From Nanobdellota archaeon (GTDB lineage: Archaea; Nanobdellota; Nanobdellia; Woesearchaeales; GW2011-AR9): 34,525 nt of DNA. The translations under genes were made by a program, and so were the position numbers. The notes under the pieces were generated by a model. That model saw nothing but the letters and a program-made list of their open reading frames with translations, was not told where the DNA came from and ran no database searches. Below, one piece after another: positions 3,618 through 24,238 of the stretch. Each line of letters opens with the position of its first letter. Position 1 is the stretch's first letter. Location: NCBI GenBank assembly GCA_038046445.1, contig JBBSWE010000185.1:1-34525 (forward strand), in the 5' to 3' direction.

Positions 3618-4085
3618 ATGGGATTAGGATGGTTATTTGGAAAAAAGAAAGTTTTACCGAAGGTGCCCTTACCAGAAGGTTTACCTTTTGACGAAAAGAC
3701 CTTTCGGTTCTCTAAAAAATTTGGTGGAGACACCGTCATTGAACCGGAAGACTTGCATGCTGCTGCTGGCTTTAACCAGCCGTTCAACCTACCGGAAAAT
3801 GCTCCTCGGGCTTTAAGGCCGGGTTCAACCCCCGCGCCCACTCCTACGGAGACAGGAATGAGTCCTGAGCCGGTATTTATTAAGGTAGATGCTTACCAAA
3901 GAATTTTAGGAGAAATCGATGAGGTTAAATCTAACCTCATTAAATTGCAAGAAGCCAATCGTCACTTAGAAAGTTCGGAATATAATGAAGAGAACCACTT
4001 TGAACGCTTAAAAAAAGCGATGAAACAAGCTCACGATCAATTGCTTCAAGTTGATAAAACTATCTTCAAATATCAAGGTGAATAA
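3618..4085 (+). CDS. hypothetical coiled-coil protein (Pro-rich linker plus 'PVFIKVDAY' helical module)
   Basis: 155-aa ORF. TATA-like 'cttttaaa' lies about 30 nt upstream. The C-terminal half shares its motif with the next ORF. Confidence 0.55.
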   Translation: MGLGWLFGKKKVLPKVPLPEGLPFDEKTFRFSKKFGGDTVIEPEDLHAAAGFNQPFNLPENAPRALRPGSTPAPTPTETGMSPEPVFIKVDAYQRILGEIDEVKSNLIKLQEANRHLESSEYNEENHFERLKKAMKQAHDQLLQVDKTIFKYQGE

Positions 4086-4086
4086 A

Positions 4087-4314
4087 ATGGAAAGAATGCC
4101 AGTTTTTGTTAAAGTAGACGAATACGATGAGGTGCTTAATTTAGTCAAGCTAATTCGTAAGAAAATCGATGAATCCAAAGAAACTTTGCTTAAGATTAAT
4201 GAATTAAAAAATGAAGAGGACCACCAGCTAGAAATGTGGCAGAACAATTTAGCTGAAGTTGAAAAGAAAATTGACTTCATTGAACACTCGCTTAACGAAC
4301 CAGAACACTTCTAA
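4087..4314 (+). CDS. hypothetical small coiled-coil protein, paralog of the C-terminal module of the preceding ORF
   Basis: ATG at 4087 lies 1 nt after the upstream stop. 'MPVFVKVDEYDEVLNLVKLIRKKIDES' parallels 'PVFIKVDAYQRILGEIDEVKSNLIKLQEA'. The 4051 start in the ORF track sits inside the upstream gene. Confidence 0.5.
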   Translation: MERMPVFVKVDEYDEVLNLVKLIRKKIDESKETLLKINELKNEEDHQLEMWQNNLAEVEKKIDFIEHSLNEPEHF

Positions 4315-4315
4315 A

Positions 4316-4765
4316 ATGACCCACGCTAAGAATAATCCCAAACGTAAAGATGCTCGCGCAGAGAAGGATCCTAATTTTATGGTTCAGATTAGCGAGCCAC
4401 GGATGTTAAGAAAGGACATTTTAGAATCAGTAAGAGAAGTGATTATTTTTATGCAGGGATATGAAAAATTCCGTAAGATTCAAGAAGAAAAAGTAGCTCT
4501 TTTCACTTTATTGAAAACAGATGTACGAATATTGAACAACTTAGCGGAAGATAAATTGCGTAAATACCTGCCTAAAGGAAAGTTAAAAGCAGTGCAATTA
4601 GATAAACAACCGACTAAACCAGAGGATTATGCTTATCAACGAGATGAAGAGCCCTTAAGGGTTAGTACTTCGGCCGTTCCAACTAGTAATGCTCCACCTT
4701 CCGAATTAGACGAATTGGAAAGCCAGCTGAAAGATATTGAAACACAGTTAAGGAATGTTAGCTAA
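4316..4765 (+). CDS. hypothetical helical protein
   Basis: ATG at 4316 lies 1 nt after the upstream stop. 149 aa with a basic N-terminus, a helical core and an acidic 'ELDELESQLKDIETQL' tail. Confidence 0.5.
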   Translation: MTHAKNNPKRKDARAEKDPNFMVQISEPRMLRKDILESVREVIIFMQGYEKFRKIQEEKVALFTLLKTDVRILNNLAEDKLRKYLPKGKLKAVQLDKQPTKPEDYAYQRDEEPLRVSTSAVPTSNAPPSELDELESQLKDIETQLRNVS

Positions 4766-4794: not shown

Positions 4795-5787
4795 TTATTT
4801 CTCAGAAGTTCCTAAGAAAAACGGGGTCAAAGTTAAAACTATTGCTTTTCCGTCCTTATTTACCACTAAAATTTTCTTGCGTTCCAATCCTTCCAGTACT
4901 CGAGATAAAGTAGTTCGTGGAAGATGAGTTCCATGCCTTACTTTTGCTTGTGGAGAAGTATTATTTTGTTGGAGCAGAAAATTAACTACTAACCTTTCTT
5001 TATCTGAAAGAGTAGGTAATATCACTAAAGTATGGGAAGACAACTTTTTTTCTTTTATTGAAACTTCTAAAGAAGAATTTTTCTTACTTACTTCTTTCTT
5101 CTGGATTAAAGAAACAATCGTCCGCCCCAAGAGAAATATTCCCAATATAATCATTAAAGAATAAATGAGATATTCCCACCAAGAACTTTTTTGGACTAAT
5201 TTTTGTTTTAAAGACACTTCTATAGCAGTTACTTCACCTCTCTCTATCACCATTTCTTGCTTAGCCGCATTCTTAGTGTCAGAAGCAATTAAGATGCAAC
5301 CTCCCTCCGGAAGATTAGAAAAGGAGAAAAAACCGGTTTGATCCGCCTCTTCCAAATATGTTCCTCCATTTCCAGAAAAACAATTAACGGACACTCTTGC
5401 TCCGCTAGCTAAGTTTCCTTCGGTATCAGTCACGCTTCCTTGAACGTGACCAACAGGAAGAACGAACACTTCTACCGTATCACTTCCCGTAACTATCACG
5501 CTTCTGCTTCCAATATAATCTAAGGCAGGAGTAGCAGAAGAATCTAGCATGACGGTTAAAGTATAATTTCCGTTAAGTAAATCCAAAGAATAACCAGAAG
5601 ATAACAATTTGTCGGTCTTTATCTCATTGTTTACTTTTAAAGTAAGAATATAATCTGAAAAATCTATTTTTTCGGGGGAGTTAAAATTAAGAAGAAGATT
5701 AGAAGATTGCACTGAGCCCACTAGTAAAACTAGAAAAAACATCCCGCACCACATCTTTTTCATAAATAGGAAGAAAGAAAAATTCAT
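4795..5787 (-). CDS. membrane-tethered wHTH regulator with extracytoplasmic carboxypeptidase-regulatory-like beta-sandwich
   Basis: Signal/TM 'MWCGMFFLVLLVGSVQS'. 'GHVQGSVTDTEGNLASGARVSVNC...TGFFSFSNLPEGGCILIAS' resembles a CarboxypepD_reg domain. Central TM 'YLIYSLMIILGIFLLG'. C-terminal MarR-like wHTH 'LSDKERLVVNFLLQQ...TTLSRVLEGLERKKIL'. Confidence 0.6.
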   Translation of the reverse strand: MNFSFFLFMKKMWCGMFFLVLLVGSVQSSNLLLNFNSPEKIDFSDYILTLKVNNEIKTDKLLSSGYSLDLLNGNYTLTVMLDSSATPALDYIGSRSVIVTGSDTVEVFVLPVGHVQGSVTDTEGNLASGARVSVNCFSGNGGTYLEEADQTGFFSFSNLPEGGCILIASDTKNAAKQEMVIERGEVTAIEVSLKQKLVQKSSWWEYLIYSLMIILGIFLLGRTIVSLIQKKEVSKKNSSLEVSIKEKKLSSHTLVILPTLSDKERLVVNFLLQQNNTSPQAKVRHGTHLPRTTLSRVLEGLERKKILVVNKDGKAIVLTLTPFFLGTSEK

Positions 5788-5905: not shown

Positions 5906-7477
5906 ATGATTATGGAAAATATTCACGTCGATAAGAAAGGAAGTGTAAAAATAGAAGTAGAAAAGAAAGATAGTGCTAACATTAACGATAATTCTGGTCC
6001 TTCTCACAAAAAGAGTAATAAATTAGTTGCTAAAGAAGATCTGCCACTAAAAAAAGTAGGTTTATTCAAGCGCATGCTGCAGACGAGAAATTTGTATATC
6101 ACCAGTAAAATTGTGGACACCGGATTGAGTTTTGAACTCTCTTGGGGATCGATTAAAAGAAATTTTGAAGTTTTGTTTCCAGAAGAAGTCTGGAAAAATC
6201 TTCCCAAGGATTATAAGAGTATGATTTTAGAGAATACTGCTCATCTTTCTTCTTTAGAAATAGGGGTAATGCTTAACGCCAAAAAGATTTATTATAATAC
6301 TCCTTTGCCTTTGTTCAAATCTTTCTTTATAGAGGTCCTGTTAAAATGCTTATTATACAGTGGAGACTGCGATACCGGTAAGATTATTCGTTACATCACT
6401 CAATTAACTAACTTGGAAGCAAATTTTAAGGGATCTCCCACTCCTTTAGAAGTTAAATTCTTAGAAACTACTGAAGGAAGCATTAACACTCTCACTTTTG
6501 GTAAAGAAAGCTTGCTGAGTTTCGGATTATCGCAAGAATTGGGAATGAACCCTGTTCCGGTAACTATAATCGAACCCGATTGCGATGTAATTTATCGAGA
6601 TCAACATATCAAAACCTTCCAGAACCGCCATAAGTATGATTTAATCAAGAAGTTTGAACAAGAATTTAGTCTTCACGTTTATTGTATTGATAGTAATTTG
6701 AATGATATTCCCGATTACACTCTTTGGGATTTAGATTATACTGATTTGGGATGGTCTGCTCAACTCACCCAGTATATTTTCTTACTTTTACCTTTTAATT
6801 TCCAGTTTAAACAGAAATACACTGTTTATGGCAACGAATATTCCTGTGATTTTTACTATTATAATCAGGAAGGGTTCAAATGTCATCCGGTTTATGATCA
6901 GACTTCAGATTGGATGAGACAAGTTAATTCCATGCTGCAAACTATGACCGGCGGAAGAGTGCAAGCCATATCTTTGGTACAACCCTTACACGAAATTGCC
7001 GGAACTAAAGTATTATATCAAAGATATCCTCATTTAGCTAAATACCAGATGTCTTGTCACTGTAATAATGAGGGAGCAAAAGACCATCGCTGGTGCGGAG
7101 CTTGTTCTAAATGTGCCCGCTGTTTCATCTTTATGAAAGCTTTGGGGTTTGACCCGGAAATAGTGGGATTAAGAGAGATGCTTTCTCTTACCCATCAACA
7201 ACATTACTCCCTTTTCAATCAAGGTAAAGAAATGTGTGGATTTGACTCTGTTGGATTAGGGAGAGACGAACAACTATTTGCTTTTCATCTAGCTGCAAAG
7301 CGGGGAGTGCAAGGAGAATTGATAGATTTGTTTAAGAAAGAGTTTGGAGAGGAAGCCGAAAGAAGGGAAGAAGAGTTTAGAAACGAATTCTTTAAAGTAC
7401 AGCGACCAGCTAACATCCCAAACAATATTTGGAAAAAATTGAAGCCCATTTTCGAGGAGGAATTAAAGAAAAATTAA
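5906..7477 (+). CDS. uncharacterised protein, adenine-nucleotide-alpha-hydrolase-like (degenerate PP-loop 'TFGKES', QueC-like Cys motif); paralog A
   Basis: 523 aa. 'INTLTFGKESLLSFGLSQELGMNPVPVTI' sits where SGGxDS plus helix would be. 'SCHCNNEGAKDHRWCGACSKCARC' resembles the QueC zinc motif. Lys-rich N-terminal extension of about 60 aa. Confidence 0.55.
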   Translation: MIMENIHVDKKGSVKIEVEKKDSANINDNSGPSHKKSNKLVAKEDLPLKKVGLFKRMLQTRNLYITSKIVDTGLSFELSWGSIKRNFEVLFPEEVWKNLPKDYKSMILENTAHLSSLEIGVMLNAKKIYYNTPLPLFKSFFIEVLLKCLLYSGDCDTGKIIRYITQLTNLEANFKGSPTPLEVKFLETTEGSINTLTFGKESLLSFGLSQELGMNPVPVTIIEPDCDVIYRDQHIKTFQNRHKYDLIKKFEQEFSLHVYCIDSNLNDIPDYTLWDLDYTDLGWSAQLTQYIFLLLPFNFQFKQKYTVYGNEYSCDFYYYNQEGFKCHPVYDQTSDWMRQVNSMLQTMTGGRVQAISLVQPLHEIAGTKVLYQRYPHLAKYQMSCHCNNEGAKDHRWCGACSKCARCFIFMKALGFDPEIVGLREMLSLTHQQHYSLFNQGKEMCGFDSVGLGRDEQLFAFHLAAKRGVQGELIDLFKKEFGEEAERREEEFRNEFFKVQRPANIPNNIWKKLKPIFEEELKKN

Positions 7478-7478
7478 A

Positions 7479-8873
7479 ATGGGTTCAATCGATGTTAACA
7501 CCAAGATTAATCTTCGAGGAATAGAATTAATTTTTTCTAATCCTTCGGTTAATCGACGGTTAGAAGTAGAATTTCCCGAAGGGGTGTGGGAAAATTTTCC
7601 AGATAAACTAAAAGAGATCTGGACTCACAATTTGGTTTATCTAGCTACCGTAGAACTTACACTCATGTTCAAAGCTAAAGAGATAAGGTATAATACTCCT
7701 TTCCCCTTACTAAAACCTTTCTTCGATGAATTATTTATGAAATCTTTTACTTATAGTGGAGATGTTGATTCAGAACAATCTTTCCGCTATCATCAGCAGT
7801 TATTGAATTTAAACTTCTCTTTTTCTGAAAATGCTCCGAGTTACCAAACTATCGCTCCAAAAGTGGAAGAAAGTTCAATTAATACCCTCACTTTTGGAAA
7901 AGAAAGCTTGTTAAGTTTAGGGTTAGCGCGAGAAATCGGATTAAATCCTGTCCCGATTACAGTAATAGATAACGATTTAGACGTAGAATTTAGAGGAGAG
8001 AAAATTAAAAGTTTTACTAATAAGCATCTGTGGAATTTAATCCCAAAGTTGGAAAAAGAACTTAACTTAAAAGTAAACACGGTTAAGAACGAATTATGTA
8101 AACTGCGCTGTAATGTAGAATGGGATTTAGATGATACGGATTTGGGCAGCGCTAATGTCATTACAGAATTCCTTTTTTTGTGCCTGCCCTTCAGTTATTC
8201 TCACCATTCCAAGTATATTGTCTTTGGTAATGAAAATTCGTGTAATAAGTATTATTACAGTAAAGAAGGAGTAAAATGTTACGCCGTCTACGACCAATCT
8301 CCCGATTGGATTACCCATCTTAATGCTTTAACCAACATTTTAACTCAAGGAAAAGTACAAGTGGTTTCTCTGGTACAACCTTTGCATGAAATGGCCGTAG
8401 CTAAAGTTTTGTATCAAAGGTATCCTCATTTGGCTAAATACCAAACTTCTTGTCATGCTGATGAACTTAGTGCAGAAGAGAATCGTTGGTGTCACGCTTG
8501 CGCTAAGTGCGCTACTTGTTACGTCTTTATGAAAGGGTTAGGATTCAATCCAGAACAGGTAGGATTGAAAGATATGTTTAAATTAGAATATAAGCACTTG
8601 TTTTCTTTGTTTAATACCCACAAAGATATTTCTCAAGGATATTATTCCATGCAATTAGCCCGAGATGAGCAGCTGTTCGCTTTTCATCTGGCCGCTAAAC
8701 GGGGAGCGCAAGGGGAATTGATGGACTTGTTCAAGAAAGAGTTTGGGAAGGAAGCTGCTGCTCGGGAAGAAGAGTTAAGAGAAGAAATATTTAAACTACA
8801 TGAGCCAGAGAATATACCTTTAGAGTTGTGGGATAAGCTCAAACCTATTTTTGAGAAAGAGTTGAAGAAGTAA
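7479..8873 (+). CDS. uncharacterised protein, paralog B of the preceding gene
   Basis: 464 aa, starting 1 nt after the upstream stop and colinear with paralog A. It has the same 'INTLTFGKESLLSLGLAREIGLNPVPITV' and 'SCHADELSAEENRWCHACAKCATC', and a nearly identical C-terminus 'RDEQLFAFHLAAKRGAQGEL'. Confidence 0.55.
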   Translation: MGSIDVNTKINLRGIELIFSNPSVNRRLEVEFPEGVWENFPDKLKEIWTHNLVYLATVELTLMFKAKEIRYNTPFPLLKPFFDELFMKSFTYSGDVDSEQSFRYHQQLLNLNFSFSENAPSYQTIAPKVEESSINTLTFGKESLLSLGLAREIGLNPVPITVIDNDLDVEFRGEKIKSFTNKHLWNLIPKLEKELNLKVNTVKNELCKLRCNVEWDLDDTDLGSANVITEFLFLCLPFSYSHHSKYIVFGNENSCNKYYYSKEGVKCYAVYDQSPDWITHLNALTNILTQGKVQVVSLVQPLHEMAVAKVLYQRYPHLAKYQTSCHADELSAEENRWCHACAKCATCYVFMKGLGFNPEQVGLKDMFKLEYKHLFSLFNTHKDISQGYYSMQLARDEQLFAFHLAAKRGAQGELMDLFKKEFGKEAAAREEELREEIFKLHEPENIPLELWDKLKPIFEKELKK

Positions 8874-8922: not shown

Positions 8923-9092
8923 GCGGATGTGCCGGAGCGGTCAAACGGGATAGCTTGTTTTGGTCTTCTGATCAAAATGGATCCAAACTCAAGGCATTTG
9001 AATATAGAGTGCTCACCAGAGTGCTATGAAGAAATCAATGTAAGTCATCTATTGGCTTAGTGCCTACCCAGGTTCGATTCCTGGCATCCGCA
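8923..9092 (+). tRNA. class-II-like tRNA (Ser/Leu type) interrupted by about 86 nt of intervening sequence; isotype unresolved (best manual model Ser-GGA)
   Basis: Acceptor GCGGATG (8923-8929) pairs with CATCCGC (9085-9091), discriminator A. D-arm 'CCG GAGCGGTCAAA CGG'. T-arm 'CCAGG TTCGATT CCTGG'. Candidate anticodon stem ATAGC (8950-8954) / GCTAT (9023-9027) encloses 68 nt. Long variable arm 'TGGCTTAGTGCCTAC'. An extra 25 nt lies between GCTAT and the variable arm. Confidence 0.75.
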
Positions 9093-13567: not shown

Positions 13568-13804
13568 ATGGTTTATTGTGGAACATTTGGTTTAGGATAC
13601 GGAACAGGAGGATGGAGCGGAATGATCTTTATGGGATTATTCTGGATAGCGGTTATAGCAGCAATTATTTGGCTGGTAATCAAGCTAAGTCAAGGCCAAC
13701 TCTCAGGCAATAAAACTGCAGAAGAGATACTAAAAGAGCGTTATGCCCGGGGAGAACTCTCAGAGAAGGAATACGACCAAAAATTGCGCGAGGTAAGAAA
13801 ATGA
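13568..13804 (+). CDS. SHOCT-domain membrane protein
   Basis: 78 aa. TM 'IFMGLFWIAVIAAIIWLVI' followed by the SHOCT-like 'AEEILKERYARGELSEKEYDQKLREV'. Confidence 0.7.
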   Translation: MVYCGTFGLGYGTGGWSGMIFMGLFWIAVIAAIIWLVIKLSQGQLSGNKTAEEILKERYARGELSEKEYDQKLREVRK

Positions 13805-14190
13805 AAATTAAGTGGATTTTTAGCTTATTATTAGTATTATCAGTATTGGTCGTTGGATGTGCTAAGTCTACCAATGAAACAACCTTAACTGGACAAGCGG
13901 TATCTCAAATTGAGACAATAAAAACATTTGAAATTACCGCTAAATCCTTTAGTTTTGAGCCAGATACAATTACTGTAAATAAAGGAGATAAAGTTAAACT
14001 TATTGTTACTTCCATAGATATCGACCACGGAGTAGGTATCAAAGAATATAACCTTAGACAATATGTCGCTGCAGGTAAAACAGAAACCATAGAATTCATC
14101 GCAGATAAACAAGGAACTTTCAATTTTTATTGTTCAGTTTATTGTGGAGAAGGCCATGGAACCATGAAAGGACAATTAATAGTGAAATAG
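13801..14190 (+). CDS. cupredoxin-fold copper-binding (lipo)protein
   Basis: ATGA overlap with the upstream stop. Lipobox-like 'LVVGC'. 'FEPDTITVNKGDKVKLIVTSIDIDHGV' and 'FYCSVYCGEGHGTMKGQLIV' provide His/Cys/His/Met ligands. Confidence 0.75.
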   Translation: MKIKWIFSLLLVLSVLVVGCAKSTNETTLTGQAVSQIETIKTFEITAKSFSFEPDTITVNKGDKVKLIVTSIDIDHGVGIKEYNLRQYVAAGKTETIEFIADKQGTFNFYCSVYCGEGHGTMKGQLIVK

Positions 14191-14202
14191 AGGTAAATAA
14201 AA

Positions 14203-14406
14203 ATGAAAAAAATACAATTGAAGATAACTGGAATGCATTGTAAAAGCTGTGAAATGTTAATAACTGACGCCTTGGAAGAGGTAGGAGCTAAAGCCCAAGT
14301 AGACAGCAAAAAAGGCACAGCTATCGTTGAATTTGATGAAAAGAAGCTAACGGAAGATAAGATCAAACAGATCATCAAAAACGAAGGTTATAGTGTAGAA
14401 AAATAG
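14203..14406 (+). CDS. copZ: heavy-metal-associated copper chaperone
   Basis: 67 aa. 'GMHCKSCEMLI' is the MxCxxC motif in an HMA ferredoxin-like pattern. Confidence 0.85.
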   Translation: MKKIQLKITGMHCKSCEMLITDALEEVGAKAQVDSKKGTAIVEFDEKKLTEDKIKQIIKNEGYSVEK

Positions 14407-14415
14407 AGGTACCCT

Positions 14416-16176
14416 ATGGTTGATATAAAAAGAAAATTTAAAATAAAGGGAATTGATTCTGAAGATTTAGAAAGTCTAGCGGCAAAAGAAGCTTTCTCGG
14501 TCTCTGGAGTGAAGTCCATAGATTTCTTCCCGGAAAAAGAAGAAGCCCAGATTGAGATGGAAGAAGATGTTAATTTAAGTAAAGTGTTCGAAAAAATGGA
14601 AAAGCGCGGATTTAATTGCGAAACTATTTCTACCGAAAAGATTATCCCTTTGGACACTAACAATAGTATAGAAGCGGAACCTCTTCCGGAAAATAAACCA
14701 CCCACTGAAAGCATCATCAAAAAGAAGTTTAAAGTTAAAAATATGGTTTGTGCCAGCTGTGAAAAAATTATTTCTAAAGAAGTACATAAACTTTCAGGAA
14801 TCAAAAGTGTTATCGTAGATTATAACTCGGGTTCAGCAGAGATATCTTACGATCAACATCAAGTTTCTTTTGAAGAAATAAAAAATAAAATTGAAAGTAG
14901 AGGATATATTGTAACCGATTCCAGTGAACTGGATGAAAAGAAAAAATTAAGTGGATTTTCCTGGTTATTGATTGCTGCTGGAATTATTATGTTAGGTTAT
15001 TTTGCTTTACAACTTTATTCTAACATTTCCATTCCAGAAATCTGTAAGAACATGGGTTATGGATTATTATTTGTAGTTGGATTACTTACTGGATTCCATT
15101 GTGTAGCTATGTGTGGCGGATTCGTAGTATCATATACCACTAAAGGTGCTAAAGAAGGGAAGAAACCAATGCAATTACATGCCAGTTATGCTATCGGAAA
15201 AACCATCTCTTATACTATTATTGGAGCGATCTTTGGCCTTCTGGGCAGCATTATTGCTTTTACTCCCGCTATCAGAGGGTGGGCAGGAATCATTGCCGGA
15301 ACTTTCTTGATACTGTTTGGATTAAAGATGTTAGGTTTAAGTTGGTTCAAAAAGTTCCAGTTCAGCTTACCTAAATCCATGAGTAAGTGGATTGGAGAAG
15401 AATCAAAGATTCATCAACAAAGTCCATTAATTATCGGATTACTAAATGGTTTGATGATTGCTTGCGGTCCTTTACAAGCAGTATATATTATGGCGGCGGG
15501 AACCGGAAGTATGGTTGAAGGAGCAAAGATGCTTTTCATCTTTGGCTTAGGAACGCTACCGGTAATGTTGGGCTTTGGTTATTTAACTAGTATTATAAGT
15601 TCCAAAGCTACTATGAAAATCTTGAAAGCTAGCGGAGTATTAGTAATAATCTTGGGATTGATTATGTTAAACCGAGGACTAGCCTTGACCGGTAGCGGTT
15701 ATGATACTGAATCCCTAACTTCGGGAATAAGTGCTCTAGGCAGCAACAATAATGTGCCCACGCAAACATCGGATTCTAGTTCTGGATTAGTGATTAAGGA
15801 TGGCTATCAAGAAATTAGAATGACTGTAGGAAGTAGCGGCTTTAGTCCGAACAAATTCGTATTAAAGAAAGGTGTCCCTGTAAAATGGATTATCACCGGC
15901 GCACAATTGAATGGATGTAATAATAAAATTCAAGTCCCGGCTTATAATTTAAATTTTGATGTCAAGCCAGGAGAACAAACTATTGAATTTACTCCCGATA
16001 AGGTTGGCACCATCTCTTGGAGTTGTTGGATGGGCATGTTAAGAGGAGCATTTGTGGTAACTGACAGTGCTGATGCTCAAACAGTAGCTCAGGCCGCAAG
16101 CCAAGTACAAGTTCCGAAGGGAGCAAGTTGTGGAGCAGGCGGTGGAGGCTGTGGCTGTGGAGGAGGTGCAAAATGA
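14416..16176 (+). CDS. fusion protein: degenerate HMA + canonical HMA + polytopic TauE/DsbD-like permease + C-terminal cupredoxin-like domain
   Basis: 586 aa. The first HMA-like repeat lacks CxxC; the second has 'NMVCASCEKI'. The membrane core carries 'GFHCVAMCGGFV'. C-terminus reads 'FSPNKFVLKKGVPVKWII...GCNNKIQVP...ISWSCWMGMLRGAFVV'. Tail 'SCGAGGGGCGCGGGAK'. Confidence 0.7.
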   Translation: MVDIKRKFKIKGIDSEDLESLAAKEAFSVSGVKSIDFFPEKEEAQIEMEEDVNLSKVFEKMEKRGFNCETISTEKIIPLDTNNSIEAEPLPENKPPTESIIKKKFKVKNMVCASCEKIISKEVHKLSGIKSVIVDYNSGSAEISYDQHQVSFEEIKNKIESRGYIVTDSSELDEKKKLSGFSWLLIAAGIIMLGYFALQLYSNISIPEICKNMGYGLLFVVGLLTGFHCVAMCGGFVVSYTTKGAKEGKKPMQLHASYAIGKTISYTIIGAIFGLLGSIIAFTPAIRGWAGIIAGTFLILFGLKMLGLSWFKKFQFSLPKSMSKWIGEESKIHQQSPLIIGLLNGLMIACGPLQAVYIMAAGTGSMVEGAKMLFIFGLGTLPVMLGFGYLTSIISSKATMKILKASGVLVIILGLIMLNRGLALTGSGYDTESLTSGISALGSNNNVPTQTSDSSSGLVIKDGYQEIRMTVGSSGFSPNKFVLKKGVPVKWIITGAQLNGCNNKIQVPAYNLNFDVKPGEQTIEFTPDKVGTISWSCWMGMLRGAFVVTDSADAQTVAQAASQVQVPKGASCGAGGGGCGCGGGAK

Positions 16177-16637
16177 AACAGTACTTTTTAATTTTTTTTA
16201 GTTTAATTGTTATTTTTATTGCCGGTTGTTCCGCTAATAATAACTCTACAATTGGATCAGAAACAGTTGTTAAGGCGGAAAATTACGAGAATGCGATAAA
16301 AATACCCCTTTCGGAGATTAGTACTACGGCTAAATTTTTTAATCAAACTATTGATGGAGTGAAAATTGAATTTTTTGTAGTAAAATCATCAAATGGAGAA
16401 ATAAAGGTTGCTTTCAATGCGTGTGATGTTTGTTACGGAAATCAGAAAGGATATGTTCAAGAAGGAAAAGAAATGGTATGTAACAATTGTAAACAGCGAT
16501 TTGAGATTGACAATTTGGATGTGAAAAACAAAGTTGCTGGTTGCTGGCCATCTTACTTAGAAAGTAAGATTGAGGGAGACTCAATACTAATTTCTCAAGA
16601 GAGGTTATCTGAGAGGAGATATATGTTTGAAAATTAG
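16173..16637 (+). CDS. DUF2318-like Cys-rich extracytoplasmic (lipo)protein
   Basis: ATG at 16173 overlaps the upstream TGA. Lipobox-like 'FIAGC'. 'FNACDVCYGNQKGYVQEGKEMVCNNCKQRFEID...GCWP' matches the four-Cys DUF2318 pattern from memory. Confidence 0.6.
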   Translation: MKQYFLIFFSLIVIFIAGCSANNNSTIGSETVVKAENYENAIKIPLSEISTTAKFFNQTIDGVKIEFFVVKSSNGEIKVAFNACDVCYGNQKGYVQEGKEMVCNNCKQRFEIDNLDVKNKVAGCWPSYLESKIEGDSILISQERLSERRYMFEN

Positions 16638-16707
16638 GGAGTAAGGAAGAGAAACGTTTACTGTAAATTTAACAAATAATAATACCACGTAAAAATAGAG
16701 ATTAAAA

Positions 16708-17178
16708 ATGGAAAGGAACACCTTATGGAAAATGATTATTTTTCTATCTTTATTAGGTATTCTTGTCTCTGGTTATTTAATCAAGATCCATTTTACTTTC
16801 TCCAGTTTTTGTGATTTAAATCAAGCATTAAGTTGCAGCACCGTTAATGCTAGCGATTATGCAAATGTTTTAGGAATACCGGTCTCCTTTTTAGGCCTTG
16901 CCTTTTATGTGTTTGTATTTATATTCAGTACTCTTAATTACTTCCTGAAAGAAAAATACAGAAAGTTATCTAAATTGATATTGGTTGCAAGTGTTGTTGG
17001 TTTGTTTTTTTCTTTGTACTTAACCTACGCTGAATTTTTCCTTATTAAGGCAGTCTGTATTTTATGTTTAATCTCTTTGGGATTAATCTTAGGAATAGTG
17101 TTCTGCAGTAATCAGCTTAATAAAACAGAAGTAAAAGATAATGAAAATACCCCTCCTCAAATAACGAAATCACCATAA
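16708..17178 (+). CDS. vitamin K epoxide reductase (VKOR) family membrane oxidoreductase
   Basis: 156 aa with four TMs. Loop Cys pair 'CDLNQALSC', 'GIPVSFLGLAFY', and a TM4 'CILC' redox motif. Confidence 0.7.
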   Translation: MERNTLWKMIIFLSLLGILVSGYLIKIHFTFSSFCDLNQALSCSTVNASDYANVLGIPVSFLGLAFYVFVFIFSTLNYFLKEKYRKLSKLILVASVVGLFFSLYLTYAEFFLIKAVCILCLISLGLILGIVFCSNQLNKTEVKDNENTPPQITKSP

Positions 17179-17211
17179 AGCTTAAATAGTTGAGCAACTA
17201 TTCAACTAAAA

Positions 17212-17544
17212 ATGATGAAATATAACCCAGAGTACACTCAAAAAATCCTTCAACTCTTTTCAAGTTTAAGTGATGAAACTAGACTGAGGATAACGTTGTG
17301 TTTATTAGAAAGACCAAGAACGGTAAAAGAAATTCATCACAGTATTGGTGAAGAAAAAATGACTTTGTCGGCCATCTCTCATCAATTGAAGCAAATGCAC
17401 GATATTAATATTATTGAATTTGAGAAAAGGGGACGAGAAAAAACCTTTCATCTTTCCGATAAGTTTTGTTGGTGCATCCTGAGAGATGCTCTAGGACATT
17501 TTCAACACACTAAATGTCCTGAGTGCAGCAAAGTTAAGAAATAA
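17212..17544 (+). CDS. ArsR/SmtB-family metalloregulator
   Basis: 110 aa. 'LFSSLSDETRLRITLCLLERPRTVKEIHHSIG...SAISHQLKQMHD' is the ArsR wHTH. C-terminal 'CWC...HTKCPEC' are candidate metal ligands. Confidence 0.8.
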   Translation: MMKYNPEYTQKILQLFSSLSDETRLRITLCLLERPRTVKEIHHSIGEEKMTLSAISHQLKQMHDINIIEFEKRGREKTFHLSDKFCWCILRDALGHFQHTKCPECSKVKK

Positions 17545-17578
17545 CACCAAAAAATTTAAACAAATTAAATAAGATAAA

Positions 17579-19744
17579 ATGGAAAAAATTATTTTAAAAA
17601 TACAAGGAATGCATTGCGCCAGCTGTGCTACGATTATTAACAGGGCCCTAACTAAAGTAGAGGGTGTGAAATTTGCTAACGTTAACTTTTCTACCGAGAA
17701 AGCAGCAGTAGATTATGATGCGAAGATAGTAAGTGAACAAGAAATGATTACTGCAATAAAGAGCAAAGGTTATAGTGCTTATATTGCTAAAGATACTAAT
17801 CCCAAAGAAGAGGAGAGAAAACGCAAATTTGAATTATCAAAATTGAGAAACAAAGTGATTCTTAGTTTTGTTTTTGCTGTTCCAGCTTTAATTGTGAGCA
17901 TGTTCTTGATGGATCTTCCGTTTAAGGAATATATCGTCTGGGCACTTGCTACCCCAGTACAATTTTACATAGGAGCTACTTTTTATCGTGGAGCTTGGGC
18001 CGCGTTAAAGAATAAAACATCCAATATGGATACTTTAATTGCTTTAGGAACTAGTGCAGCCTATTTTTACTCTGTTTATGTGGTTTTGTTCGTTCCCAAA
18101 GGAGAACAGTATTTTGAAGCAGCAGCAGTATTGATCGCTTTAGTCGTTCTAGGAAAATATCTAGAAGCGGTAGCTAAAGGAAAAACTTCTGAAGCAATTA
18201 CTAAATTAATGAAACTGGGAGCCAAAACCGCTACAGTTATCAGAAACAAGAAAGAATTGCAAATTCCTATCGAAGAAGTACAGGCAGGAGAGATTATTTT
18301 AGTCAAGCCGGGAGAAAAAGTACCGGTAGATGGAATTATTGTGGAAGGATATTCTGCTCTGGATGAAAGTATGATTACTGGAGAAAGTATTCCGGTGGAA
18401 AAGAAAAAAGGAGATGCTGTAATCGGTTCTACTTTAAACAAACACGGTAGTTTCACGTTCAAAGCAACTAAAGTTGGAGCAGAAACTATTTTATCTAGGA
18501 TAATTAAATTAATTGAAGAAGCGCAAACTAAAAAAGCTCCGATCCAAAGGTTTGCCGATAATGTTTCGGCTTATTTTGTACCTGTGGTTATCGTTATCTC
18601 TTTACTCACATTTATAACTTGGTACTGGATCGCTGGAGCTGCCTTTAGTTTTGCTTTGGTTACTGCCGTAGCGGTGTTAGTTATTGCTTGTCCTTGTGCT
18701 TTAGGTCTAGCCACTCCTACTGCCATTATGGTTGGAACTGGTAAGGGAGCTAAAGAAGGAATTCTGATTAAAGGAGGAGAAGCCTTAGAAACGGCTCATG
18801 AATTGAAAGCAGTAGTCTTTGATAAGACTGGCACGATTACTAAAGGTCAACCGGCAGTAACTGATATTCTTCCGAATAAGATTTCAGAAAAGGCTTTTTT
18901 AGAAATTGCTGGAAGCATCGAGAAAAGTTCCGAGCATCCTTTAGCTGAAGCTATCGTCAACAAAGCTAAGACAGAAAATATCTCTTGGAAAAAAGTAACT
19001 CATTTCAAAGCCATTCCGGGAAAAGGAATTTCCGCTAAAATTGGAACTAAAACTTACTCTTTAGGAAGCCCAAAGATGGTAAGTGTTGATTCCGTTTGGA
19101 AAAATAGAATCCAAGACCTGGAAGAACAAGGGAAGACGGTCATGGTTTTGGCTGAAGGAAAGAAAGTGCTTGGAGCCATCGCCGTAGCTGATGAAATTAA
19201 AGAAGACTCGCCAGAAGCTATCAGAAGATTAAAGAAATTAGGATTGAGAGTATACATGATTACCGGAGATAATCAAAGGACGGCTAAAGCTATCGCTAAG
19301 AAAGTAGGGATAGAACATTTCTTTGCGGAAGTACTTCCAGAACATAAAGCAAGTCATGTCAAAGAATTGCAAAAGAGAGGCAAAGTAGCCATGGTGGGAG
19401 ACGGAATTAACGATGCTCCGGCTCTAGCACAAGCTGATATTGGAATTGCTATGGGTTCAGGTACAGACGTAGCCATGGAATCTGGAAGTATCGTTTTGAT
19501 GAGAAATAGTTTGTTAGATATTCCCAAAGCCATTAAATTGAGCAAGATGACCATGAGTAAGATCAAGCAAAACATGTTCTGGGCTTTGTTTTACAATGTC
19601 TTAGGTATTCCCGTGGCCGCAGGAGTATTATATCCTTTCACCGGCTGGCTGCTTAGTCCCATCATTGCTGGAGGAGCCATGGCGCTGAGTTCAGTAAGTG
19701 TGGTTACTAGCTCACTCTTGCTGAAGAGAAGAAAGCTTAAATAA
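17579..19744 (+). CDS. copA: copper-translocating P1B-type ATPase
   Basis: 721 aa. N-terminal HMA 'GMHCASCA', plus TGES, the TM 'CPC', 'DKTGT', 'HP', and 'GDGINDAP'. Confidence 0.95.
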   Translation: MEKIILKIQGMHCASCATIINRALTKVEGVKFANVNFSTEKAAVDYDAKIVSEQEMITAIKSKGYSAYIAKDTNPKEEERKRKFELSKLRNKVILSFVFAVPALIVSMFLMDLPFKEYIVWALATPVQFYIGATFYRGAWAALKNKTSNMDTLIALGTSAAYFYSVYVVLFVPKGEQYFEAAAVLIALVVLGKYLEAVAKGKTSEAITKLMKLGAKTATVIRNKKELQIPIEEVQAGEIILVKPGEKVPVDGIIVEGYSALDESMITGESIPVEKKKGDAVIGSTLNKHGSFTFKATKVGAETILSRIIKLIEEAQTKKAPIQRFADNVSAYFVPVVIVISLLTFITWYWIAGAAFSFALVTAVAVLVIACPCALGLATPTAIMVGTGKGAKEGILIKGGEALETAHELKAVVFDKTGTITKGQPAVTDILPNKISEKAFLEIAGSIEKSSEHPLAEAIVNKAKTENISWKKVTHFKAIPGKGISAKIGTKTYSLGSPKMVSVDSVWKNRIQDLEEQGKTVMVLAEGKKVLGAIAVADEIKEDSPEAIRRLKKLGLRVYMITGDNQRTAKAIAKKVGIEHFFAEVLPEHKASHVKELQKRGKVAMVGDGINDAPALAQADIGIAMGSGTDVAMESGSIVLMRNSLLDIPKAIKLSKMTMSKIKQNMFWALFYNVLGIPVAAGVLYPFTGWLLSPIIAGGAMALSSVSVVTSSLLLKRRKLK

Positions 19745-23899: not shown

Positions 23900-24238
23900 G
23901 GTAGGGGTGGTAGATAGCAGAGGGTAGCAATACTCAGGAAAGTCCGTCCACTAACTTATCGCAAGAGTAGCGCGACGATGGCTCTCAGAGAGAGAAGGGG
24001 AAAACCCTTGGCTCTGGCTCCAGCAACGACACGTCCATAACTTAGGATGAAAATGGCGAAGTTTTCAGCGATGAAAATGAGTTAATCCGTTGACGTTGGT
24101 TATGGGAACGATGAAACGGCGAATCCCCATCGGTGCAAGTTCCGTTGTGAACGCTTAGTAGAATGCTATCAAATGATCATCGACATCACTGGTTGATGTT
24201 TTGGGTCAATACAAAAGACGGCTTATTCCCCCCTACCC
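23900..24238 (+). ncRNA. rnpB: RNase P RNA (archaeal, type-A-like)
   Basis: Terminal helix 'ggtagggg' (23900-) pairs with 'cccctacc' (-24238). CR-I/P4 5' strand 'GGAAAGTCC' at 23937-23945. CR-V/P4 3' strand 'AGACGGCTTA' at 24216-24225. A GC-rich, non-coding stretch of about 339 nt in an AT-rich genome. Confidence 0.8.

Follow-up and report, generated by a model that had tools for sequence, protein, structure and literature searches.

The best explanation of two adjacent archaeal genes, here termed A and B, is that their products are intact enzymes from a sister family of MurL, unnamed and found mainly in DPANN archaea. It is very probable that both are MurL-related PP-loop enzymes with a QueC fold, and likely that they adenylate the carboxylate of an amino acid or peptide; that the outcome is epimerisation is put forward more tentatively. 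The genes lie in a stretch of 34,525 nucleotides (the window) from the genome of a member of the Woesearchaeota, DPANN archaea.

A and B are tandem paralogues

5906..7477, + strand: gene A, 523 aa, MurL-like PP-loop family, long (A-type) form
7479..8873, + strand: gene B, 464 aa, a short, B-type paralogue, always directly downstream of an A-type gene
5906..6097, + strand: N-terminal extension of A, ∼64 aa, rich in Lys, Asn and Ser and with no counterpart in B

The stop codon of A and the ATG of B are separated by one base (7478) on the same strand, and the reading frames are exactly those of the preliminary description, in which the genes had been called tandem paralogues with a 1-nt spacer. 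The two proteins are colinear and 52% identical over 459 aa with a single gap (BLASTP, E 1e-169), a similarity that, as judged from the alignment, is far beyond chance. The alignment begins at A residue 65; A-type homologues are 499–621 aa long, their N-termini cannot be aligned and the extension varies in length. The C-terminal halves, which had been described as the better conserved, are indeed 61.0% identical compared with 42.7% for the N-terminal halves. By domain, identity is 38% in the N domain, 49% in the Rossmann domain, 67% in the Cys region and 64% in the C-terminal helices.

In the phylogenetic tree A groups with long A-type proteins of Woesearchaeota and the B-type clade has support of 99/98; the pair arose by duplication inside the Woesearchaeota clade. 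Strict A-then-B adjacency was found in seven contigs, being seen in L011, L040, L041 and G138 and inferred for two short contigs. B-type genes always have an A-type gene just ahead of them, which suggests that the two proteins may act as a heteromer, or else on substrates that are related or handled in succession. Both A and B keep all columns that are invariant in the family, and a strict screen for differential conservation between A-type and B-type proteins returned a single column, position 212, so that there is no clear sign of loss or remodelling of an active site in A or B.

A variant PP-loop and a four-cysteine cluster

6494..6511, + strand: variant PP-loop TFGKES of A, residues 197–202
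7890..7907, + strand: variant PP-loop TFGKES of B, residues 138–143
7055..7114, + strand: four-Cys cluster of A, CHCNNEGAKDHRWCGACSKC, with C384, C397, C400 and C403
8451..8510, + strand: four-Cys cluster of B, CHADELSAEENRWCHACAKC, with C325, C338, C341 and C344; putative QueC-like metal site

The presence of TFGKES in both copies had been recognised from the outset, but its initial alignment, in which SGG became FGK, was off by one residue. Profile alignments to MJ0690, TtuA and a MurL-type protein instead register T-F-G-K-E-S on S-G-G-K-D-S, and the family profile reads fSfGKDS against the fSGGKDS of MJ0690 and TtuA. The changes in the loop are S to T, the first G to F and D to E; the second Gly is retained, as are the Lys and the final Ser. 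Among diverse family members G140 of B is invariant, K141 is kept in 121/123 and S143 in 120/123, while F139, which replaces the first Gly, occurs in 97/123 and position 142 is D or E in all 123. In register with the SGGxDS motif, the family carries the variant [ST]-F-G-K-[DE]-S. The retention of this pattern in ∼120 divergent homologues, together with the invariant columns kept in both copies, supports the earlier suggestion that the variant loop is functional rather than decayed.

In alignments A1 and A2 all four Cys columns show little or no variation; in the set of diverse members C325, C338 and C341 of B are invariant and C344 is present in 122/123. The spacing in A and B is C-x12-C-x2-C-x2-C (family range x8 to x20, mode x12), so that the QueC-like cluster previously noted in both proteins is a spacing variant of the QueC zinc motif, C-x8-C-x2-C-x2-C (PMC13329287). 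A weak Pfam match to QueC spans the cluster of B, and in the MurL-type protein P0268 the stretch aligned with this cluster reads SSC...WCGECAKC. The cluster is probably a zinc knuckle.

Predicted fold of B

The AF2 model of B (pLDDT 93.4, pTM 0.92) shows a predicted Rossmann-like α/β fold with the P-loop after strand 1, the arrangement that defines the PP-loop (AANH-like) superfamily, with which the preliminary description had compared the proteins. The best Foldseek matches were QatC (9y01_B), Cap9 (9nto_B) and QueC (3bl5/2pg3), then TtuA, NcsA and MnmA; the probability was 0.9–1.0 for all of these and for the GMP synthetase ATPPase, and the TM-scores to QatC were low (0.37–0.39). A phmmer search of B against PDB sequences gave just a chance LIM-domain match. 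The domain plan comprises a family-specific N-terminal domain of ∼125 aa, the PP-loop core and a C-terminal helical domain of ∼110 aa.

A and B are predicted to share with QueC, QatC and Cap9 a PP-loop Rossmann core and, after it, a zinc knuckle of four Cys, but they carry extra N- and C-terminal domains. They differ further from QueC in the Cys spacer (x12 rather than x8) and in their Pfam scores (PF06508, 10.6 and 12.0 bits against a gathering cutoff of 22, in the Cys region only), and a regex search found in neither protein the QueC substrate motifs YxQxHxxE and VPxRN (PMC13329287). With TtuA, NcsA, MnmA and ThiI the family has in common the profile-detected P-loop, first helix and second strand (S-G-G-K-D-S...G); in contrast, this similarity is limited to ∼40–70 residues, the metal site differs, and no RNA-binding domains were seen in A or B.

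Relationship to MurL

We know of no ATP-dependent, one-way peptide epimerase other than the bacterial enzyme MurL, and of no catalytic base assigned to it. MurL needs ATP and Mg, gives AMP and acts in the L to D direction only (PMC5808125, PMC8788868). In the open literature searched, reviews of 2018 and 2021 describe it as being without recognisable domains.

The MurL model NF041275 was the sole significant family match of both proteins (A, residues 306–513, 33.9 bits, E 1.2e-8; B, 28.9 bits, E 4.1e-7), and it matches A, B, P0040, P0055, P0164 and P0203 colinearly, with E-values down to 3.7e-9. The NCBIfam cutoff for MurL is 700 bits, from which A and B fall short ∼20-fold; on these scores they are homologous to MurL and are not equivalogs. 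No profile places either protein in a characterised family above its cutoff; such a placement would have told against the preliminary description.

Profile A2 retrieved, among 5.8 billion proteins, the MurL–MurD fusion P0268 (E 2e-26), of which residues 6–432 match the MurL model (E 1.5e-101) and whose gene adjoins FtsW and MurG. Alignment of A2 with P0268 by hhalign (99.4% probability, E 5e-21, 295 columns) brought SGGKDS, N-E, S-C, W-C-x2-C-x2-C and D-E all into line. The resemblance to MurL faintly suggested in the preliminary description was right as a statement of homology. Between the P-loop and the C-terminal end, MurL and the A/B family run colinear, with these motifs and the position of the P-loop in common, and they are of similar size with ∼130 aa before the P-loop. 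Unlike MurL, the A/B family has Phe for the first Gly of the P-loop and two paralogues in many genomes, and the N-terminal domains of the two groups cannot be aligned.

Identity between the A/B family and MurL-type proteins is only ∼19%. In precomputed Pfam annotation MurL_N and MurL_epimerase_C occur in no family member, whereas P0268 carries PF26299 and PF26298, two models that the local Pfam scan did not return even for P0268. Taken together, the low identity, the sub-cutoff scores and the lack of precomputed MurL domains suggest that function may have diverged.

Distribution, gene neighbourhoods and host gene content

The family comprises ∼350 clusters, mostly from DPANN archaea and every one annotated as hypothetical; literature searches (MurL/PP-loop, DPANN/Ddl and QueC-like/ATP-grasp) returned no description of it. 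A search for related loci with the close-clade alignment A3 led to Woesearchaeota MAGs. Ddl-like ATP-grasp genes lie at most 8 kb away in 14 of 30 non-redundant loci, and in 11 of these 14 they are directly adjacent and on the same strand. In roughly one related locus out of two the family gene comes after two Ddl-like ATP-grasp ligases, frequently accompanied by a lysine-2,3-aminomutase and a decarboxylase, and the operons contain two to four ATP-grasp ligases; loci L007 and L031 have complete operons of the Ddl–Ddl–MurL-like–decarboxylase–aminomutase type. An AblA-like aminomutase is present in nine loci and a LysA/FslC-like decarboxylase in six, and PanD is also among the operon partners. 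In a sample of the phylum, close Ddl1 orthologues occur in 20 genomes, of which 15 belong to the 26 that carry the family.

The A/B pair is not beside any ligase in the host genome or in its nearest relatives. The Ddl-like genes of the host are on contigs C167 (2112–3131) and C6 (2295–3272), neither linked to the pair, and that on C167 is 48% identical to Ddl1 of related operons. Three relatives from the same family (G196, G130 and G138) have the enzyme and no Ddl-like gene at E<=1e-20. The ligase partnership is thus not obligatory in the clade of the host. When the operon proteins were used in a tblastn search of the host genome, the aminomutase, PanD and a third ATP-grasp ligase were not found and the PLP-decarboxylase gave just a weak match (25% identity); LAM_C had no match there.

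The murein pathway is absent from the host: neither the Mur ligase domain PF08245 nor the MraY-type transferase PF00953 is found in its 92.8%-complete genome, and control genomes were positive for them. No alanine racemase or Asp/Glu racemase was found in the host genome, and its sole class-IV aminotransferase resembles BCAT. The absence of a racemase was reportedly the reasoning behind the discovery of MurD2/MurL, and the same logic is applied here.

Housekeeping genes surround A and B, among them ScpB, PCNA, RNase J and RNase P RNA. The gene order is kept from genus to genus, and no 7-deazaguanine pathway context is present. Upstream of A is a group of small genes:

3618..4765, + strand: three small unannotated genes encoding 155, 87 and 168 aa

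These genes had no family matches, and NCBIfam gave nothing useful either for them or for a 330-aa membrane/HTH gene. In close relatives, too, they immediately precede the A-type gene (clusters c13, c29 and c14 in the window, L011 and L017, and in the same order in L040); any functional link to A and B would be a conjecture.

Proposed activity and alternatives

The complete scheme, from a sister family of MurL through adenylation of a peptide carboxylate to epimerisation, is a possibility that we put forward tentatively. A and B would bind ATP and use it to adenylate a carboxylate, either of an amino acid or of a peptide, with release of PPi and then AMP; the activated C-terminal residue would be inverted at the α-carbon from L to D, as in MurL, and then released by hydrolysis. 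The substrate would not be a muropeptide and would most likely be a small peptide made by Ddl-like ATP-grasp ligases, candidates for which flank the family gene in many other DPANN genomes and are unlinked in the host. Genomic coupling to an amino-acid ligase is common to both systems, MurD2 with MurL and Ddl-like ATP-grasp enzymes with the A/B family; by contrast with MurL, the partner ligases here are not of Mur type and the archaea that carry the family lack Mur ligases and MraY. The analysis places both MurL and its sizeable archaeal sister family, which is unannotated, within the QueC branch of the PP-loop enzymes. The proposed adenylation thereby gains a structural basis in the P-loop, the Cys4 knuckle and the shared N-E and D-E motifs, which are open to mutation; the shared acid residues of B are E252 and E397.

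Most carboxylate-adenylating PP-loop enzymes yield amides, not epimers. Amide formation is the leading alternative, conceivable if unlikely: A and B would be ligases or amidotransferases with chemistry of the QueC/Cap9/Dph6 type, in which the adenylated carboxylate would be captured by ammonia or an amine such as β-lysine, a decarboxylated diamine or a peptide N-terminus. QueC adenylates a carboxylate, as is proposed for A and B, and the nearest folds of known structure, those of QueC, QatC and Cap9, all belong to enzymes that turn an adenylated carboxylate into an amide or nitrile (PMC13329287; PMC13279940); amines could be supplied by the AblA-like aminomutase, the LysA/FslC-like decarboxylase and PanD of the operons. 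However, the sequence homology is to MurL and not to QueC (10–12 bits versus 22, with VPxRN and YxQxHxxE absent), the operons already contain ATP-grasp ligases for amide bonds, and the N-E and D-E motifs, which the MurL-type protein also has, suggest that the step after adenylation is shared.

Sulfur insertion by an Fe-S-dependent enzyme of the TtuA/NcsA/LarE kind, giving a thiocarboxylate or thioamide, is very unlikely. TtuA, NcsA and ThiI are among the Foldseek and profile matches, and the organisms are anaerobes in which Fe-S proteins are abundant, but the TtuA matches are confined to the P-loop region and the conserved neighbourhoods are without a sulfur-carrier gene. Moreover, four Cys residues with QueC-like C-x(n)-C-x2-C-x2-C spacing suit a closed Zn site, whereas sulfur-transfer enzymes rely on three Cys, with one Fe site left free (PMC13329287).

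Among the structural matches of B, QatC and Cap9 come first, and three small unannotated genes precede the pair in close relatives, as might be expected if A and B were the QatC/Cap9-like part of an anti-virus system that modifies a partner protein. This reading is highly improbable and was rejected: PADLOC gave no match at E<=1, QatA/B/D, CD-NTase, Cap10 and TGT-like genes are absent from a neighbourhood of housekeeping character, the synteny is steady across genera rather than variable as in a defence island, and the TM-scores to QatC are low. Least probable of all, and likewise rejected, is true MurL orthology in a murein or pseudomurein-type pathway, since the MurL match, although the only significant one, scores 29–34 bits against a cutoff of 700, the host has no Mur ligase or MraY, and the genuine MurL-type P0268 is fused to MurD and adjoins FtsW and MurG, neither of which holds for A and B.

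The MurL-like scheme can be extended, as a speculation that is rather unlikely in its full form, to a pathway in DPANN archaea that lack racemases and murein. Here the family would act as ATP-driven C-terminal peptide epimerases which, with Ddl-like ligases, build a hitherto unknown peptide containing D- and/or β-amino acids for the envelope, or for use as an osmolyte or polyamine-like compound. In archaea this would correspond to the 'ligate first, epimerise after' route of MurD2/MurL, with A and B performing two successive inversions or forming a heterodimer. If epimerase activity were confirmed, it would reveal D-amino-acid peptide chemistry in DPANN archaea and provide new stand-alone peptide epimerases for biocatalysis. 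The repeated operon, with its Ddl-like ligases, β-lysine-type aminomutase and decarboxylase, points to an undescribed small-peptide pathway in ultra-small archaea of minimal metabolism and without murein. In many lineages the lysine-2,3-aminomutase and the decarboxylase would join the epimerase/ligase route; fusions of Ddl with the aminomutase exist.

Tandem paralogues of a MurL-related family

The window is the entire 34.5-kb contig (C185) of a host genome of 1.37 Mb, 92.8% complete, and close homologues come from Candidatus Woesearchaeota MAGs. The gene pair under study is adjoined by archaeal housekeeping genes, namely those for ScpB, PCNA, an RNase J-like beta-CASP nuclease and archaeal RNase P RNA.

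5906-7477, + strand: ORF A, 523 aa
7479-8873, + strand: ORF B, 464 aa

A single base separates the two frames. The A and B proteins align over 459 residues with one gap and 52% identity (E 1e-169). Conservation is lowest in the N-terminal domain (38% identity) and reaches 64-67% across the Cys region and C-terminal helices (42.7% versus 61.0% by halves). A carries ~64 additional low-complexity N-terminal residues that B lacks; TFGKES and a C-x12-C-x2-C-x2-C cluster are common to both. Reading frames, BLAST identity and motifs all agree with the preliminary description of tandem paralogues that bear these two motifs and are better conserved in their C-terminal halves.

In Pfam the sole match was to QueC, below threshold and confined to the Cys region. 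The one significant NCBIfam match was the MurL equivalog NF041275 (E 1.2e-8 for A and 4.1e-7 for B), at scores of 29-34 bits that fall far under the 700-bit cutoff. An exhaustive phmmer search over 1.84 billion cluster representatives returned 349 clusters at E<=1e-3, 122 of them at E<=1e-30; almost all have lengths of 440-500 aa. Members of this family that carry a name are all listed as 'hypothetical protein'; they come from Woesearchaeota, Nanoarchaeota, Aenigmarchaeota and one Omnitrophica bin, with more distant ones in Bathyarchaeota, and none has a precomputed Pfam domain. In an alignment of 123 sequences (mean column identity 26%; B numbering), G140, C325, C338 and C341 are invariant, and K141, S143, L144, P237, E252, Q273, L311, S324, W337 and C344 are at least 90% conserved. 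The loop follows the consensus [ST]-F-G-K-[DE]-S, in which 97 of the 123 sequences have the F, and both A and B keep every invariant column.

A variant PP-loop on a QueC-like fold

AF2, given an alignment of 43 sequences, modelled B with very high confidence (pLDDT 93.4, pTM 0.92). The model comprises, in order:

1 to ~125: beta/alpha N-terminal domain
130-136 onwards: Rossmann-type core, beginning with this strand, then the loop and helix 141-152
after the core: Cys-rich knuckle
C-terminal helical domain

Foldseek against the PDB ranked QatC (9y01_B), Cap9 (9nto_B) and QueC (3bl5, 2pg3) at the top, followed by TtuA, NcsA, MnmA, ThiI and further PP-loop enzymes. Alignment of the family profile with PDB sequences placed 'fSfGKDSLl' on 'fSGGKDSsl' of MJ0690 and on 'vSGGKDSav' of TtuA. 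This puts T-F-G-K-E-S in register with S-G-G-x-D-S and leaves a genuine replacement only at the first glycine; the register proposed earlier, in which SGG had become FGK, was shifted by one residue. The defining features of QueC are SGGxDS and a zinc-binding C-x8-C-x2-C-x2-C motif (PMC13329287). A and B bear a spacer variant of the latter, whereas the QueC substrate motifs are absent from both.

MurL belongs to the same branch

Searching a 5.8-billion-protein collection with the family profile identified P0268 (E 2e-26), an 840-aa protein that matches the MurL model over residues 6-432 (E 1.5e-101) and MurD over residues 444-831 (E 2e-82). Its gene (L057:1352-3874, on a metagenome contig), which encodes epimerase and ligase as a single polypeptide, adjoins FtsW and MurG, and the protein bears Pfam MurL_N and MurL_epimerase_C; P0268 is therefore an authentic MurL of the murein pathway, joined to its ligase. 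The family profile aligned with P0268 in hhalign at 99.4% probability (E 5e-21, 295 columns), with these correspondences:

VAVSGGKDS of P0268: TFGKES position
S-N-E of P0268: G-N-E (E252)
S-S-C and W-C-G-E-C-A-K-C of P0268: Cys cluster
F-D-E of P0268: R-D-E (E397)

The P-loop region of P0268 itself matches the Pfam tRNA_Me_trans, PAPS_reduct and PP-loop models. Together, these data indicate that MurL is itself a QueC-like PP-loop protein and that A and B belong to a sister family. MurL, which reviews describe as 'lacking known conserved domains', needs ATP and Mg, yields AMP and acts from L to D only (PMC5808125, PMC8788868).

Genomic context of the family

Neighbours were clustered for 30 non-redundant loci drawn from assemblies and from a further 25 genomes of this phylum. 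Ddl-like ATP-grasp genes lie within 8 kb in 14 of the 30 loci, and are directly adjacent on the same strand in 11 of these 14. A KamA/AblA-type radical-SAM aminomutase occurs in nine loci, a LysA/FslC-like PLP decarboxylase in six, a further ATP-grasp gene in three and PanD in two; the recurrent order is Ddl-like, Ddl-like, family gene, (ATP-grasp), decarboxylase, aminomutase. The operon ligases match the NCBIfam D-Ala-D-Ala ligase subfamily model at E ~1e-51 to 1e-53, under its cutoff, and the aminomutase scores 503 bits against an AblA cutoff of 525 bits. Frames of ~700 aa fuse the Ddl-like ligase to the aminomutase at L039 (G170:C11), G207:C1, G048, G345 and G238, which suggests that the ligase uses a beta-amino acid. 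Elsewhere the family gene is paired with a PLP (PALP) enzyme and a Ddl-GNAT fusion. Bathyarchaeota hold a subfamily of ~480 aa with a canonical SGGKES loop, paired with PALP and DUF1611:

L056:4766-8437: PALP, DUF1611, MurL-like gene, with a GNAT gene alongside

Everywhere, the genomic context is one of amino-acid or peptide metabolism. Among 401 evenly spread genomes of the phylum, 26 hold the family and 20 a close orthologue of the operon's first ligase (E<=1e-80); the overlap of 15 genomes is indicative only, since related genomes are not independent.

In the window's genome and its nearest relatives, however, family genes do not adjoin ligases. The conserved synteny of this clade is ScpB, an MJ0538-like gene, an LTD protein, three small unannotated genes, A and B. 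The host has two solitary Ddl-like genes, one on contig C167 with 48% identity to the first operon ligase and one on C6 with 35% to the second, and no Ddl-like gene at E<=1e-20 was found in three relatives from the same taxonomic family that have the enzyme. The ligase partnership is thus a family-level tendency, not established at the window locus. Neither aminomutase nor PanD was found in the 92.8% complete host genome. Alanine racemase and Asp/Glu racemase were likewise not found in this incomplete genome, whose sole class-IV aminotransferase looks branched-chain. Ligases lacking a D-amino-acid source also prompted the discovery of MurD2/MurL, although here the genome is incomplete. D-amino acids are not obligatory for Ddl-like enzymes.

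Upstream of A lie the following:

3618-4765, + strand: three small genes (155, 87 and 168 aa), possibly interrelated, with no family match
4795-5787, minus strand: gene with a carboxypeptidase-regulatory-like domain and a weak C-terminal ArsR-type HTH match

The latter stands between the three small genes and A in the window; the same three-gene order lies immediately upstream of an A-type gene at three other loci (L011, L017, L040).

Relationship between A and B

Maximum-likelihood phylogeny groups the short B-type proteins in a supported clade (99/98), nested within a Woesearchaeota clade (98/100) whose remainder consists of long A-type proteins. B-type directly follows A-type, with a spacer of 0-10 nt, in the window, at L011, L040 and L041 and in genome G138, and this adjacency is inferred for two short contigs whose lengths match. 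The A-type gene stands alone in G130, G176 and G196, and other lineages hold two paralogues independently (G207, G215, G093, G073). Under strict criteria only one column is differently conserved between the types, so that, judged from sequence, both A and B look catalytically competent. The pairing pattern fits either a heteromer, as first supposed, or two related steps.

Proposed activity

The fold, the homology, the conservation of nucleotide-loop and metal-site residues, and a genomic setting in amino-acid or peptide metabolism are established, and A and B are best filed as a real, well-conserved, uncharacterised enzyme pair in the MurL/QueC branch of PP-loop enzymes. ATP would be bound at the variant loop and the substrate carboxylate adenylated; the last step might then be C-alpha inversion with hydrolytic release, as in MurL. 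Epimerisation is the outcome tentatively favoured, because MurL is the nearest sequence relative, with non-nucleotide N-E and D-E motifs common to both, because several amide-forming ligases are already present in the operons, and because no racemase was seen in the host genome. Its main rival is amide formation, in which an amine would capture the adenylate as in QueC and Cap9; it is considered less likely. An assignment of A and B as MurL orthologues was rejected, as neither a Mur ligase middle domain nor an MraY-type transferase was found in the 92.8% complete host genome, with control genomes positive for both. A role in defence was dismissed on finding no PADLOC match and no defence-type neighbourhood. 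The pair matters mainly through the D- or beta-amino-acid peptide pathway that it implies in DPANN archaea and through giving MurL a structural home.

Other features of the window

8923-9092, + strand: probable tRNA gene with intron(s), directly after B
13801-19744, + strand: copper/heavy-metal cluster
23900-24237, + strand: archaeal RNase P RNA (RF00373; 117.6 bits, E 1.5e-32)

The first, missed by ARAGORN and by Rfam at gathering threshold, starts with GCGGATGTGCCGGAGCGGTCAAACGGG and ends with CCCAGGTTCGATTCCTGGCATCCGCA, which are clear tRNA acceptor/D-arm and T-arm/acceptor halves ~170 nt apart. The metal cluster encodes a cupredoxin, a DsbD-HMA-cupredoxin fusion, an FtrD-like protein, VKOR, an ArsR-type regulator and an HMA P-type ATPase.
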